Part shown: piece after piece, positions 47,261 to 51,543 of the stretch
Position numbering within the stretch: position 1 is the first letter of the stretch
Layout of the letters: each line of letters opens with the position of its first letter
DNA from: a virus
IMG/VR virus record: IMGVR_UViG_3300035670_000106
Span: 1 to 64,000 of that record
Reading direction: 5' to 3' (one strand)
Length of the DNA stretch: 64,000 nt
The notes under the pieces: generated by a model
Seen by the model: only the letters and a program-made list of their open reading frames with translations
Told to the model about the DNA's origin: nothing
The model's database searches: none
Made by a program: the position numbers and the translations under genes

Positions 47261-47806
47261 ATGTCTCTAATAGTCTGGAGCTCCTTTGGAGACATATGGA
47301 ATGCAAATGGTAAGGTATCGTTTAATGGGGTTAACAAAACAATTAATGTTAACTCCGACGTTACAACTCTAGACATTAGAAGTGAGGTATACTCTCTTTG
47401 GGTAGACTGGCTAGAATTTGGTACAAATTCTAGCTTTCCTTTAGCTATGAGATACTCTGGAATGGATCCTATCCCTAATGGCGAGTCAGGAGGGATCTTC
47501 TTCCTTACTAATGGTTGGAGACTTATTATTGACTTCAATAAAGTAGCAGTATTTGGCGTTTTATACTCAGACGACTATCCGACTGCTTATTTTACAGAAG
47601 AGTTACAACCTTTATACCCTGCTCAAGTTAGTGGCATTGTTAATAATGTAATACAAACTAATACTGTAACAGTAGCAGCCAACCCAACAGAAGTAGCGCA
47701 AGCTATACTAGCTTCCCCTGTAAATACTAGTAGTACTCCCGGTTCTATAGGTGAGTTTATTACTAAAAAACTACTTACTGTAGCTAAGTTCATAGGATTA
47801 AGATAA
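47261..47806 (+). CDS. Hypothetical protein sharing an N-terminal domain with 44461-45876
   Basis: 'EVYSLWVDW...FPLAMR' versus 'AIYSKFILLW...YAFPMY'. Confidence 0.6.
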   Translation: MSLIVWSSFGDIWNANGKVSFNGVNKTINVNSDVTTLDIRSEVYSLWVDWLEFGTNSSFPLAMRYSGMDPIPNGESGGIFFLTNGWRLIIDFNKVAVFGVLYSDDYPTAYFTEELQPLYPAQVSGIVNNVIQTNTVTVAANPTEVAQAILASPVNTSSTPGSIGEFITKKLLTVAKFIGLR

Positions 47807-48498
47807 TGACAACAAATAGACAACCTAATAACTCTAATAAAGGCAATTCGTACTCCTTCGAGGCCGAAAGTCTATTGATTCAATCTATGAATTTACTATC
47901 TGATAGAATAGCTAAGGCAGAGACTGACTTTGTTGGGCACTTAAAGAAAGTTGAAGATAGGCTCGATCAAATTGTAGAACTTACTAAATCTGTTGCGGTT
48001 TTACAAACTCAAACTAGCCAACAAACAGATCATATCACAGAAATAAGGGAAGCACAAAGAGAGCAATTCCATAAAGCAGACGCCTCTCTTACTCGAGTGC
48101 ACTCTAGAATCGAAGAGGTTCAATCTAACGCTAATATAAAGCTTGAAGCTTTTGGAACTGAAGTTAAAGCAATAGTTAAGGATGTAGAAAATCACGCAGA
48201 TAGCACAGATAGGGAACTAAAAGCTTGGCTTAATAGAGGTTGGGGGGCATGGGCAGTTTTTACCCTTGCTGTTACAATATCCTCAGGATTGTTTTATAAG
48301 TGGGTAGACTCTATTGAACAGGATAAAGTTGTACTAACAACCTCAGTAAATCAATTGGTAGAGGTATCTACTAAAACTAATAACTCAATCCAGAAGTTGA
48401 CTGAGCAAGTACAAAGTAATAAGCAAAGCATAGAAAGGCTTGATATTATGATGGATGACCTGGAAAAACAACTAGAGTATATGAGGATTAAAAGATGA
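47806..48498 (+). CDS. Single-TM protein with coiled coils on both sides
   Basis: TM 'GWGAWAVFTLAVTISSGLFY' flanked by heptad-rich regions. Confidence 0.7.
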   Translation: MTTNRQPNNSNKGNSYSFEAESLLIQSMNLLSDRIAKAETDFVGHLKKVEDRLDQIVELTKSVAVLQTQTSQQTDHITEIREAQREQFHKADASLTRVHSRIEEVQSNANIKLEAFGTEVKAIVKDVENHADSTDRELKAWLNRGWGAWAVFTLAVTISSGLFYKWVDSIEQDKVVLTTSVNQLVEVSTKTNNSIQKLTEQVQSNKQSIERLDIMMDDLEKQLEYMRIKR

Positions 48499-48923
48499 GA
48501 AAATTATTCTTTTTAATGCTTCTAATTGTTTCATTTAATGTATCAGCAACAAGTGTTCCTGCAATTAAAAATAATGACCCTAAATTAACGCAGTCTATAA
48601 CAAAGTTAGAAGCTTACTGGCTTTACACTTTAAAGCTACGATATTGGGATAGTGGGCATAAGGTCACATTATTTCTTCTACCTTTTGATAGCTCTGTGCA
48701 CAATACTTTTGTTAGGGATACCTTGGGGATCAACCCCAGGGTATTTCAACAGGTTATAGAGTCCAATATTAATATTGGGGTAGGGTCCTATAGGTTTGTA
48801 AGAAGCGAGTACTTAATGTATGATATGGTTAGTAAAGTACCCGGAGCTATTGGATATGTATCTAATAAGCTACTAATTAACGAAGGGGAAGGGCATGTTC
48901 GCAAGATTAATATTACTGATTAG
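48495..48923 (+). CDS. Secreted small PBP2-like (phosphate-binding-protein-like) periplasmic protein
   Basis: Sec signal ending VSA; C-terminal 'VSKVPGAIGYV' motif of the PBP2/PstS fold. Confidence 0.7.
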   Translation: MRKLFFLMLLIVSFNVSATSVPAIKNNDPKLTQSITKLEAYWLYTLKLRYWDSGHKVTLFLLPFDSSVHNTFVRDTLGINPRVFQQVIESNINIGVGSYRFVRSEYLMYDMVSKVPGAIGYVSNKLLINEGEGHVRKINITD

Positions 48924-49965
48924 TTTATTACTATTTAGTACTTTTAGTTTTGCAGACTTAACTAAAAGTATTAGCGGATACCTCTATAATACTACTTGGG
49001 AAGACGAGAACTTTAATGAAAACAGGACAGTAGCAGCAGTTAGTGGGTCTATCGAGGGAGATAACTTGGCCCTACGTGGCCAAGTTAGTACCTCTGATCT
49101 TATAGTTAGAAGGCTAACCCTAGAGTACTCCGGGACTGGCCTTAGTACTGAGCACACTGCTACTGTTGGCAGGTTTAATAGAGTGGAGTCCTTCTTTAAT
49201 AACCTATTAGATGCTCCAAGTTCCACACAGATGGCTGTACTGCCATTTGGAGGATATAACTATAGAATGTTTAATGGCTCTTATGTATTGCTAGATGGTA
49301 TTGGGTATACTAACAAATATAAGTATAACGGAGGCACTTTAATTACTACTAAAGTAAATTATGGCAACTCTGTTATAAACAGTGATAAGGATGTACAGTT
49401 AGAGGCTTTTAAAACTTATATACCTACTATCGATGTAGTGTCTGACCCTACGTTCGATATTAGTTTAAAGGTAGAGCGAAAAGGTCTACAGGGGTATATA
49501 GCTAGACAACACTATAAGATACATCTAGAACCTAAAAGTTCGGACCCAATGACTGATGCAATAGTATCTACATATAAATATACTGACTATATTTTATATA
49601 GGGCTGGAATACGAAAGGACTACAATAATTATTTTGTTAGTATAGAGGCTGATAAAGGAGAAACAATAGTAAATAGTACTCATAAGACTAAAAGTATTTA
49701 TAATAAGGCTATGGAGTATAATGTAGTCTTAGGTACTTATATAAAGGACTTTATGTTATATACAGGGGTATCTCGTGGTAAGAACTTAACTACTGATACC
49801 TCCAATACTGATAATTTTATTGGAGTAACCTATAACTATGATCCTTGTATAGTAGTATCGTTAGCTAAGCATCAAGGAAAGGGCAGAGGTTGGGTTAAGT
49901 ATGGTAGCAGCCCAGAAGAGTACAAATGGAACACTCTTGTCCTATCTACTACTTATAAATTTTAA
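48895..49965 (+). CDS. Outer-membrane beta-barrel (porin-like) protein
   Basis: Signal peptide ending SFA, amphipathic beta strands, C-terminal beta-signal 'STTYKF'. Confidence 0.75.
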   Translation: MFARLILLISLLLFSTFSFADLTKSISGYLYNTTWEDENFNENRTVAAVSGSIEGDNLALRGQVSTSDLIVRRLTLEYSGTGLSTEHTATVGRFNRVESFFNNLLDAPSSTQMAVLPFGGYNYRMFNGSYVLLDGIGYTNKYKYNGGTLITTKVNYGNSVINSDKDVQLEAFKTYIPTIDVVSDPTFDISLKVERKGLQGYIARQHYKIHLEPKSSDPMTDAIVSTYKYTDYILYRAGIRKDYNNYFVSIEADKGETIVNSTHKTKSIYNKAMEYNVVLGTYIKDFMLYTGVSRGKNLTTDTSNTDNFIGVTYNYDPCIVVSLAKHQGKGRGWVKYGSSPEEYKWNTLVLSTTYKF

Positions 49966-49979
49966 TTGGAGAAAGTTTA

Positions 49980-50534
49980 ATGGCTTTACCACTTTTACTA
50001 GCACCTTTATTAGGTAAATTAGCAGAAAATGGACTTGGACTACTAGCCAGCGCAGTCACAGCTAAGGGCAAGGACTTAATTGAGGAAAAACTAGGAGTAG
50101 ACCTTGATAAAGAGATGGGGTCTGAAGAAGGGCGTATTAGGTTAAGAGAGCTAGAATTAAAGCACGAAGAGTTTTTAATTGAATCTGCACAGAAAAAAGC
50201 GGAACAAGAGTTAGAAGTAATTAAAGTTAGCAATGCTGATACAGCTTCTGCTAGAGATATGAATACCCGTATTCAGGAGTCCACTAATGCTTCAGGATTC
50301 GCAAAAAATGCCGCATATTACTTAGACTTTGTAATCGTAGGAGCCACACTAGTCCTAGCTTACATTCTATTCTTTGTTCAGATACCAGAAGAAAATCTCC
50401 AGCTACTTTATATGGGGTTTGGTTCACTACTGACTATGTGTGGTACTATTCTTAATTTCCACAGAGGCACTTCCCATTCTTCAAGAGAAAAAGACTCAGC
50501 CATACACGGTATTTTAGGAGATAAAAAATTATGA
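49980..50534 (+). CDS. Putative holin
   Basis: Two C-terminal TM helices plus amphipathic N-terminus; overlaps the endolysin start. Confidence 0.7.
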   Translation: MALPLLLAPLLGKLAENGLGLLASAVTAKGKDLIEEKLGVDLDKEMGSEEGRIRLRELELKHEEFLIESAQKKAEQELEVIKVSNADTASARDMNTRIQESTNASGFAKNAAYYLDFVIVGATLVLAYILFFVQIPEENLQLLYMGFGSLLTMCGTILNFHRGTSHSSREKDSAIHGILGDKKL

Positions 50535-50857
50535 GCTTAGGCGCAGAGCAAGAAAGTTTTACTCGTGATCTTGTTAAACTATTAACAAAAGCTTTCGAGC
50601 TGGGTTACGAAGTACGTATGGGAGAAGTACAGCGCCCTGTTGAAATGCAGGAACTATATGTCCGTACTGGCAGGTCTAAAACCATGAATTCACAGCACCT
50701 GAAGAAATTAGCTGCCGATTTACATTTTACAAAAGATGGAACACTGTGCTATCCTCAGGAGTTAGGTGACTACTGGGAGTCTTTATCTAAAGTTAACAGG
50801 TGGGGTGGAAACTGGAAATCTTTCAAAGATGCCCCACATTTTGAAAGATTTGTCTAA
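50531..50857 (+). CDS. Endolysin, M15 L-Ala-D-Glu peptidase
   Basis: 'SQHLKKLAAD', 'WGGNW', 'DAPHFE'. Confidence 0.9.
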   Translation: MSLGAEQESFTRDLVKLLTKAFELGYEVRMGEVQRPVEMQELYVRTGRSKTMNSQHLKKLAADLHFTKDGTLCYPQELGDYWESLSKVNRWGGNWKSFKDAPHFERFV

Positions 50858-51543
50858 TGGCTTCTTCCTCTAAAAAAGCTAGAAAAGTTGCATCTAATCC
50901 TAACCAGATCCAGATTAACGGCTTTGAGCCAATAAAGCCTAAGAACTTTGCACAAAGCACTTATTTAGATGCTATCCGTAGGTCTGATATTGTTTTTGCA
51001 ACAGGCCCTGCAGGTACTGGTAAGTCGTATATTGCTACAGCATACGCCGCGGAGCAACTTTACTATAAGAAGGTTGATAAAATTATTATAACTCGCCCAG
51101 CTGTAGAAGCTGAGGAAACTATGGGGTTCTTGCCCGGGGAACTAGAGGAAAAATATGCTCCTTACTTAGCACCTATAAGAGACATACTAGATAGACTACT
51201 AGGTAAATCCTTTGTAGACTACTGTTTAAAGGTTGGGTATATTGAGGCAGTTCCAATCGCCTATATGAGGGGACGTACTTTTGATAACGCCATTGTAATA
51301 CTAGATGAAGCACAAAACACAACCCCAAATCAAATGAAGCTAATCCTATCTAGAATAGGTAATAACTGTACATACATCATTGATGGGGATATTTCTCAGA
51401 AAGATATTCAAGGGCACTCTGGGCTAGAGGATGCTATGAAAAAACTTTCTGGCATTCCTGGAGTAGATATGGTTAACTTTTTTACTTCTGACATTGTTAG
51501 AAGTCCTTTATGTAAGAAAATTATACAAGCGTACTCGGAGTAG
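50857..51543 (+). CDS. phoH: PhoH-like ATPase
   Basis: 'GPAGTGKS', 'GFLPG', 'YMRGRTF', 'LDEAQN'. Confidence 0.95.
   Translation: MASSSKKARKVASNPNQIQINGFEPIKPKNFAQSTYLDAIRRSDIVFATGPAGTGKSYIATAYAAEQLYYKKVDKIIITRPAVEAEETMGFLPGELEEKYAPYLAPIRDILDRLLGKSFVDYCLKVGYIEAVPIAYMRGRTFDNAIVILDEAQNTTPNQMKLILSRIGNNCTYIIDGDISQKDIQGHSGLEDAMKKLSGIPGVDMVNFFTSDIVRSPLCKKIIQAYSE

Follow-up and report, generated by a model that had tools for sequence, protein, structure and literature searches.

This paper concerns three overlapping genes, which we call A, B and C, in the IMG/VR virus record IMGVR_UViG_3300035670_000106, which stems from an uncultured phage. Our analysis centres on its first 64 kb (hereafter the window); the whole record has 90,095 bp and an estimated completeness of 86%. 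The three genes and their products are as follows.

A, 47806-48498, + strand: bitopic coiled-coil membrane protein of 230 amino acids (aa)
B, 48495-48923, + strand: secreted one-lobe PstS-like protein (PBP_like_2-type) of 142 aa, about 124 aa when mature
C, 48895-49965, + strand: porin-like outer-membrane barrel of about 16 strands, 356 aa, with a signal peptide and the end ...STTYKF

Counted from the first start codons, A and B overlap by 4 nucleotides (nt) and B and C by 29 nt. All six open reading frames (ORFs) from A to the PhoH gene further downstream were verified, on the + strand, at the coordinates given in this paper. An earlier sequence-only reading of this DNA had described the three products as a coiled coil with a single transmembrane segment, a secreted protein of about 140 aa resembling periplasmic binding proteins (PBPs) and a 356-aa barrel with a C-terminal Phe, and the ORFs, the AlphaFold2 models and the Foldseek comparisons all agree with that anatomy. 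Our analysis indicates that B and C are, to judge by their sequences, a diverged phage copy of a bacterial unit made up of a one-lobe binding protein and a porin.

The binding protein and the barrel

The N-terminus of B is hydrophobic and signal-peptide-like (Kyte-Doolittle 1.91) and carries no Cys lipobox. The AlphaFold2 model of B has a predicted local distance difference test score (pLDDT) of 90.2, and its best matches in the PDB are PstS-type phosphate-binding proteins. These matches are weak (best E 5.2e-3, template modelling (TM) score about 0.51 by query), and they are confined to 114-124 columns, about half of a PstS chain, whose length is about 240-300 aa. Among the Atlas models the neighbours of B, with TM scores of 0.78-0.79, are small bacterial PBP-domain proteins from clusters of about 134-169 aa. 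B falls into no Pfam, PHROG or NCBIfam family, and a word-indexed search of 5.8 billion proteins returned no relatives of it. When a profile of B was used in a full HMMER search, 1103 clusters were returned at E ≤ 0.001 and 197 at 1e-10, mostly of 140-150 aa, and some of the clusters carry the source name 'ABC-type phosphate transport system substrate-binding protein'; the PstS model TIGR02136 gives a weak match in 7 of 53 members of the family. A conventional PstS has two lobes, about 250-340 aa in all, and pstCAB partners. B has 142 aa and no transporter genes nearby, and since it consists of one lobe only, of about 124 mature residues, it would be unable to close on a ligand as PstS does.

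C also begins with a hydrophobic signal peptide (Kyte-Doolittle 2.06) without a Cys lipobox, and it ends in Phe. Its AlphaFold2 model (pLDDT 72.4, predicted TM score 0.73) has about 16 strands, and Foldseek matches it to general porins in the PDB, with 294 chains at E ≤ 0.001, among them Vibrio cholerae OmpT (1.1e-12), PorB and chitoporin, and with TM scores to solved porins of 0.51-0.60. A comparison with BFVD gave 17 matches at E ≤ 0.001, which are predicted phage porins, and structural neighbours in the Atlas add to the assignment of a porin-like fold. Classical porins have a constriction loop after strand 5. Conservation in the family of C peaks at residues 92-135, which make up the long loop between strands 5 and 6, and the model of C shows the 16-strand barrel and the long inward loop after strand 5 that mark a general porin, with residues 96-131 of the loop modelled at low confidence (pLDDT 30-38). 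C matches none of the curated porin families in Pfam, PHROG or NCBIfam, Porin_O_P included, and the word-indexed search of the same 5.8 billion proteins returned 4 relatives of C besides itself.

A bacterial pair with the same parts

The sequence-only reading had likened B and C to a proteobacterial pair of small PBP and porin next to signalling genes, and this comparison proved sound. A Halomonas record from a plasmid collection carries a B-like gene, then a barrel-like ORF of 408-433 aa ending in Phe, then a signalling protein of 1010 aa, and the barrel is conserved in the Halomonadaceae, where a check of 164 candidate stretches confirmed 141. Alteromonas pKD01 has a gene annotated 'phosphate ABC transporter substrate-binding protein' (135 aa), whose product matches the phage B profile with 96% probability, and after it an ORF of 387 aa that also ends in Phe. 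More generally, in a sample of 400 Gammaproteobacteria centred on one of these genomes, 95 carry a match to the B profile (E ≤ 1e-5), some of them with as many as 9 copies; this tally takes in 4 genomes flagged as unpublished, none of which is among the loci described next.

We examined 40 such loci, the best B match from each of 40 gammaproteobacterial genomes, and in 37 of them the B-like gene is adjacent to a same-strand barrel-like ORF ending in Phe. The next same-strand ORF has 364-456 aa and the Phe end in 25 loci (23 of these with a W...SYRF-like motif), the barrel lies just upstream of B in 12, which is the order of vpvA-vpvB, and 3 have a barrel on neither side. Where the binding protein comes first and the gene after the barrel encodes at least 200 aa, that gene combines GGDEF and EAL domains in 13 of 16 cases, carries dCache_3 in 12 and PAS_4 in 11. 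In three genomes (G234, G015 and G315) the one-lobe PstS-like gene is present 7-9 times, with some copies in tandem (for example at loci L127, L151 and L155), which suggests expanded families of input pairs.

How closely do the phage proteins resemble this pair? Aligned with hhalign, the phage C family and the bacterial partner barrels match end to end over 306 columns, with a probability of 79.9% and an E value of 1.4e-5. The alignment pairs the conserved loop block, GRFxRVxSFYN..D.P...LP with GRxKNPxGLYNxTRDVxFTRP..LLPQ, as well as a C-terminal H.G.G..W ... W......SYxF. The bacterial partner barrels themselves match known porin families weakly, Porin_O_P in 8 of 23 and Porin_4 in 3 of 23. 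Thus B has the character of the small one-lobe PstS/PBP_like_2 protein of about 140 aa in the bacterial pair, and C, on moderate evidence, that of the related barrel adjacent to it in the same direction, while the adjacent inner-membrane receptor, with its periplasmic sensor domain and GGDEF and EAL domains, is missing from the phage. No GGDEF, EAL or REC domain was found in the 90-kb record, and A shows no similarity to the bacterial dCache_3-PAS-GGDEF-EAL receptor (hhalign probability 0.2%). In a midpoint-rooted tree of B proteins, with supports from the Shimodaira-Hasegawa-like approximate likelihood-ratio test (SH-aLRT), 4 phage rows cluster as one with 10 unlabelled metagenome rows without known origin (SH-aLRT 97), separate from both arrangements seen in bacteria; whether the sister of this cluster is the B-first or the barrel-first arrangement is not settled by the tree.

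The barrel-first order has been described in V. cholerae. According to PMC12456836, VpvABC is a predicted module of a porin (VpvA), a periplasmic binding protein (VpvB) and a membrane diguanylate cyclase (VpvC); many Gamma- and Betaproteobacteria have vpvAB but no vpvC, and the pair is proposed to be a conserved sensing unit. VpvA and VpvB are still termed hypothetical in PMC8754643. As far as these descriptions go, the phage B-C pair consists of the same kinds of parts as VpvAB, the two being likened here by description. They differ in order, since vpvABC has the porin first and the phage has the binding protein first, and in partner, since the phage lacks the cyclase and has the upstream coiled-coil membrane protein instead. 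With the gammaproteobacterial B-barrel-dCache_3-PAS-GGDEF-EAL cassette the phages share the order of B and then barrel, the B family and a similar gene overlap, which is about 30 nt in the Halomonas-type locus L009 (with the barrel start taken at a chosen internal Met) against 29 nt in the phage. The differences are that the third gene of the cassette is absent from the phages, that the phage barrels are shorter (356-364 aa against about 400-456 aa) and that phage B has its own group in the tree. Literature searches, with subscription journals outside their coverage, found nothing on the B-barrel-dCache_3-PAS-GGDEF-EAL arrangement and nothing on a phage version of a VpvAB-type pair.

The trio in other contigs

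Scans of IMG/VR and of the JGI metagenomes yielded three loci in which the trio can be read, four with the window; the three are listed here with the identity of their proteins to those of the window.

L002, 25.5-kb viral contig: A 47%, B 45%, C 41%
L006, 4.8-kb metagenome contig: A 15%, B 32%, C 35%
L008, 210-kb viral contig: A 17%, B 41%, C 34%

All four loci have the order A-B-C with overlapping stops and starts, despite the divergence of A to 15-17% identity, and this conservation shows that the trio is not a chance arrangement. Further trios are suggested by clusters whose longest contigs are equal in size, namely 3 further A clusters and C clusters (3353, 13394 and 7836 bp) and 2 A clusters and B clusters (1833 and 98714 bp); the equal sizes point to the same contigs, though they are not proof. 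Among 50,697 GenBank phage records, tblastn with A, B and C gave no match. When 47000-52000 was compared with GenBank phages by blastn, only PhoH stretches matched, in 9 records, and an Aeromonas phage locus that came out of this search was set aside as irrelevant to the trio.

Lysis-type genes adjoin the trio in three of the four loci, namely the window, L002 and L006. In L002 the trio is preceded by an ORF cut by the contig end that combines a transmembrane segment with a coiled coil, by a lipoprotein with the lipobox LSGC (phrog_456, an Rz-like spanin, 0.002), by a holin-family-like membrane protein and by an endolysin-like fragment (phrog_669, 2.8e-4), and it is followed by a stand-alone receiver domain and PhoH. 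In L006 the trio is followed by a phrog_1501 protein, by an ORF with a transmembrane segment and a coiled coil in which a lipoprotein ORF with LLSGC is embedded, and by a small membrane protein; with 3476-3994 in one frame and 3687-3941 in another this is, by architecture only, the classical embedded spanin layout, and PHROGs and NCBIfam return no spanin family for either ORF. In L008 the trio stands between tail-fibre-like genes and a gene for a 113-aa protein with a transmembrane segment.

Two further features of L002 deserve mention. Its receiver gene (3800-4153) is CheY-like (Response_reg, 45.5 bits) and lies directly after the porin gene and before PhoH, a position that holin and endolysin hold in the window; it may hint at a signalling output of the cassette. 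Between its holin-family-like protein (628-1050) and the 97-aa endolysin-like fragment (1293-1586) lies a gap of about 240 nt with no long ORF, which may reflect a split or frameshifted endolysin of the signal-arrest-release (SAR) type or an assembly error.

The trio stands after tail-fibre-like genes in two of the four loci, L008 and the window, where a run of such genes precedes A on the + strand. This placement, together with the frequency of phage-borne outer-membrane barrels in predicted viral proteomes (the 17 BFVD matches at E ≤ 0.001), could be understood if the trio served superinfection exclusion or receptor masking, the porin and its partner altering the surface or the periplasm so as to block adsorption or injection by other phages or by the phage's own progeny. 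We consider this improbable, since it leaves the retention of the binding-protein partner and of the conserved loop block unexplained and since a place in a late operon is ill suited to protecting the infected cell. Porins also occur in phages and prophages, Lc being a classical example, and C is like the general porins among them in being a 16-strand porin-like barrel encoded by a phage. Those porins are, however, stand-alone genes, whereas C comes in a fixed set with a coiled-coil membrane protein and a binding protein of one lobe.

The membrane protein upstream

A is a coiled coil throughout, except for a single weakly hydrophobic stretch at residues 145-163 (Kyte-Doolittle 1.34), and this transmembrane segment is found at the same relative place in 21 of 21 rows of one family alignment (A12) and in 4 of 4 rows of another (A11), with scores of 1.25-1.93. 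From the flanking charges, the N-terminal part of about 145 aa would be cytoplasmic and the coiled-coil tail of about 65 aa periplasmic. The word-indexed search of 5.8 billion proteins puts the family at 49 clusters, with the near-invariant motifs DFxxHLxKVEDRLDQxVxLTKxVAxL and WLNRGxGAW. A has no family in Pfam, PHROGs or NCBIfam: its Pfam coiled-coil matches are sub-threshold only, and its PHROG matches are weak coiled-coil ones, among them one to the spanin family phrog_739 (0.0028). A search of the PDB with the A12 profile gave a weak match to the coiled coils of coronavirus spike HR1 and influenza HA2 (best E 3.8e-5). Striking as it is in a neighbour of lysis genes, we read this match as heptad-repeat composition and dismiss a kinship; the N-out topology that would give it meaning is unlikely for an N-terminus of 145 residues without a signal peptide.

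A homologue of A (41% identity over residues 31-166) also occurs in the viral contig L166, again after tail-fibre-like genes. Its end is overlapped by the gene for a 97-aa membrane protein that matches the holin family phrog_8226 (1.1e-5) and is related, in a single comparison, to the membrane protein of L002 (E 3e-6), and the 212 bp remaining between this holin-family gene and the contig end contain no B or C. All that the product of 47261-47806 (181 aa), upstream of A in the window, shares with the protein of 182 aa that precedes A in L166 is a C-terminal motif of 12 residues (E 0.006), and we claim no homology.

Lysis genes, PhoH and the spanin question

Downstream of C the window continues with the following features.

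D, 49980-50534, + strand: holin-like membrane protein of 184 aa, a putative role, with no family assignment
E, 50531-50857, + strand: endolysin of 108 aa, Peptidase_M15_4
PhoH-like ATPase, 50857-51543, + strand: 228 aa, Pfam PhoH at 261 bits
Strong bidirectional terminator-like hairpin, 53859-53892, no single strand: 15-pair stem and T run, at the end of the long + strand unit that includes the trio

A terminator scan found no site within 47806-51543 that matches the hairpin at 53859-53892 in strength, and the trio sits in the late operon. Pfam assigns E to Peptidase_M15_4, at 34.1 bits where the cut-off is 25, and PHROGs assigns it to phrog_465, an endolysin family, at 3.2e-19. D matches phrog_9990 and phrog_1544, both families of unknown function, has no Pfam match above cut-off and contains one strong transmembrane segment at residues 117-135. 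A D homologue (45% identity) lies directly before a peptidase M15 gene in the cultured Curvibacter phage P26059A, in which no A, B or C was found. D and E thus form an endolysin gene directly after the gene of a small membrane protein, as in a lysis cassette, with D as the presumed holin.

Among the neighbouring genes, the Pfam scan identified a T5 p143-type tail-completion gene in the window, and nothing in Pfam, PHROGs or NCBIfam matches a 261-aa ORF that lies at 51546-52331, between PhoH and this gene. On the - strand, an ORF of 169 aa (54855-55364) lies between the ribonucleotide-reductase subunit genes at 53896-54858 and 55367-57106; judged by eye, it resembles a homing endonuclease of the HNH/AP2 type.

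The sequence-only reading had joined the trio to the lysis cassette and to phoH. The first half of this claim holds as adjacency in the window. What connects the trio with phoH is position alone: in two of the four loci, the window and L002, PhoH lies within 1 kb of it. This proximity nevertheless counts in favour of an aid to nutrient uptake, in which porin and binding protein would raise the phosphate supply together with PhoH, as do the PstS proteins that are the nearest solved folds of B and the weak matches of the PstS model to 7 of 53 family members and of Porin_O_P to 8 of 23 bacterial barrels. We found no evidence for phosphate as a ligand of the trio, and several observations speak against such a role: the single lobe of B, with its 124 or so mature residues where PstS has about 250-320; the lack of pstCAB genes nearby; bacterial relatives that stand beside signalling enzymes and not beside transporters; the place of the trio in a late operon by the lysis genes; and a barrel without a Porin_O_P match. 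A nutrient channel, one of the proposals of the sequence-only reading, thus seems to us very improbable.

The two-component spanins Rz/Rz1 consist of an inner-membrane coiled-coil protein and an outer-membrane lipoprotein. The trio is like them in lying beside holin and endolysin and in combining an inner-membrane coiled coil with an outer-membrane component, and one could imagine that A, B and C connect the two membranes and break down the outer one at lysis, taking the place of Rz/Rz1. Such a substitution would be in keeping with the weak match of A to phrog_739 and with the lack of a lipoprotein spanin that the sequence-only reading had noticed in the window. That observation extends to the whole 90,095-bp record, in which two regular-expression scans found no convincing lipobox ORF that could encode an outer-membrane spanin and in which no homologue of the L002 spanin-like proteins was found; as the record is 86% complete, spanins may lie in the missing 14%. 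The anatomy is not that of spanins. An inner-membrane spanin has an N-terminal transmembrane segment and a coiled coil that is mostly periplasmic, whereas the segment of A lies near the C-terminus, at 145-163 of 230, with about 65 residues after it and most of the protein predicted to be in the cytoplasm. An outer-membrane spanin of this type is a small lipoprotein with a lipobox Cys, and the signal regions of B and C contain no Cys. Moreover, two of the three related loci, L002 and L006, carry the trio together with a spanin-like pair, which weakens the idea of a substitute, and B and C would descend from a sensing pair. We regard a non-canonical spanin as highly improbable. Of the four functions that the sequence-only reading had put forward (outer-membrane disruption, an envelope sensor of lysis timing, a nutrient channel and superinfection exclusion), the envelope sensor fits the comparisons best and the spanin substitute worst.

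Discussion

What use could a phage make of the input half of a bacterial sensing system? The analysis shows the folds of the proteins, and it shows that B and C are homologous to the bacterial pair, that the receptor is absent and that the order A-B-C is conserved. On this basis we propose tentatively, at somewhat less than an even chance, that the trio is a phage envelope-input device built on the bacterial sensing pair, with A replacing the receptor and the lysis machinery as its most likely target. The bacterial pair would feed an inner-membrane receptor, usually the dCache_3-PAS-GGDEF-EAL enzyme of cyclic di-GMP (c-di-GMP) metabolism, and the phages would have dropped this receptor and kept their own coiled-coil protein A directly upstream of B-C and translationally coupled to it. 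Late in infection C would enter the outer membrane of the host, where it would admit or report an outside cue. B would bind the cue, or C, in the periplasm, and the short periplasmic tail of A would read the state of B at the inner membrane. The conserved cytoplasmic coiled coil of A would then relay the signal to its target, in the cytoplasm or in the membrane, for which the neighbouring holin and lysis machinery seems the likeliest candidate, and the output of the device would perhaps be lysis timing.

A more specific form of this proposal is a trans-envelope sensor, in which a small molecule from outside (a cue of host density, of nutrients or of lysis) would pass through C and be captured by B, whereupon B would dock on the tail of A and A would delay or trigger the holin. 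In this detail we hold the scheme to be possible but unlikely. In T4, the periplasmic protein RI signals an envelope event to the membrane lysis protein T and so sets lysis timing. The likeness of RI/T to the trio is a functional analogy only, there being no relation in sequence or fold and T4 having neither a porin nor a binding-protein fold. A complex prediction with residues 21-356 of C, 19-142 of B and the A tail 163-230 scored 0.00 against a mark of 0.32, a result that weighs neither way on binding.

Several points weigh against an envelope-input device. The homology of C to the bacterial barrels is moderate, with its probability of 79.9%, and Pfam and PHROGs are blank for both B and C. 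The trio of L008 has no recognisable lysis gene adjoining it. A is not confined to the trio, since in L166 it stands directly before a holin-family gene without B-C, so that A may be a lysis-cassette protein alongside which B-C was inserted; likewise, the A family has 49 clusters and the C family 5 in the same kind of search. Finally, we infer the contact among A, B and C, the ligand and the output alike.

A matching host receptor would be required if the phage hijacked the signalling of its host, B-C serving as additional or modified input parts for a host Cache-GGDEF-EAL protein and raising or lowering host c-di-GMP, and with it biofilm, motility or surface, late in infection, with A as a separate lysis-cassette protein. 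This would account for the failure to find a receptor, GGDEF, EAL or REC gene in the phage, and it would agree with the very frequent wiring of the bacterial pair to c-di-GMP enzymes, with the occurrence of A without B-C beside the holin-family gene of L166 and with the stand-alone receiver gene directly after C in L002. It sits less well with the adjacency and overlap of A, B and C in four of four loci across a deep divergence of A, and with a phage B that forms its own tree group, unlike what mimicry of one host's protein would give. We therefore judge the hijacking of a host receptor to be unlikely, though it is the foremost of the alternatives.

What would an envelope-input device built on the bacterial pair mean for phages and for the pair itself? 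Lytic phages such as T4 time lysis by superinfection, and some temperate phages read peptide signals. If a sensor is indeed carried by a lytic phage, an input through a porin and a binding protein would be a different viral route for sensing the exterior of the host cell, and if the trans-envelope scheme holds, the phage would read its surroundings for the lysis decision with parts from a bacterial c-di-GMP input system. What is new here is a pair of the VpvAB type, to judge by its kinds of parts, carried by phages with a different inner-membrane partner and a predicted function. The bacterial pair is common, with 95 of 400 Gammaproteobacteria matching, yet VpvABC is the only form of it known to have been studied. 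Being small and portable, the phage cassette could be tested in laboratory strains. More generally, the retention of the phage version by selection, without the c-di-GMP enzyme, would support the view that a porin and half a binding protein form a self-contained sensing unit.

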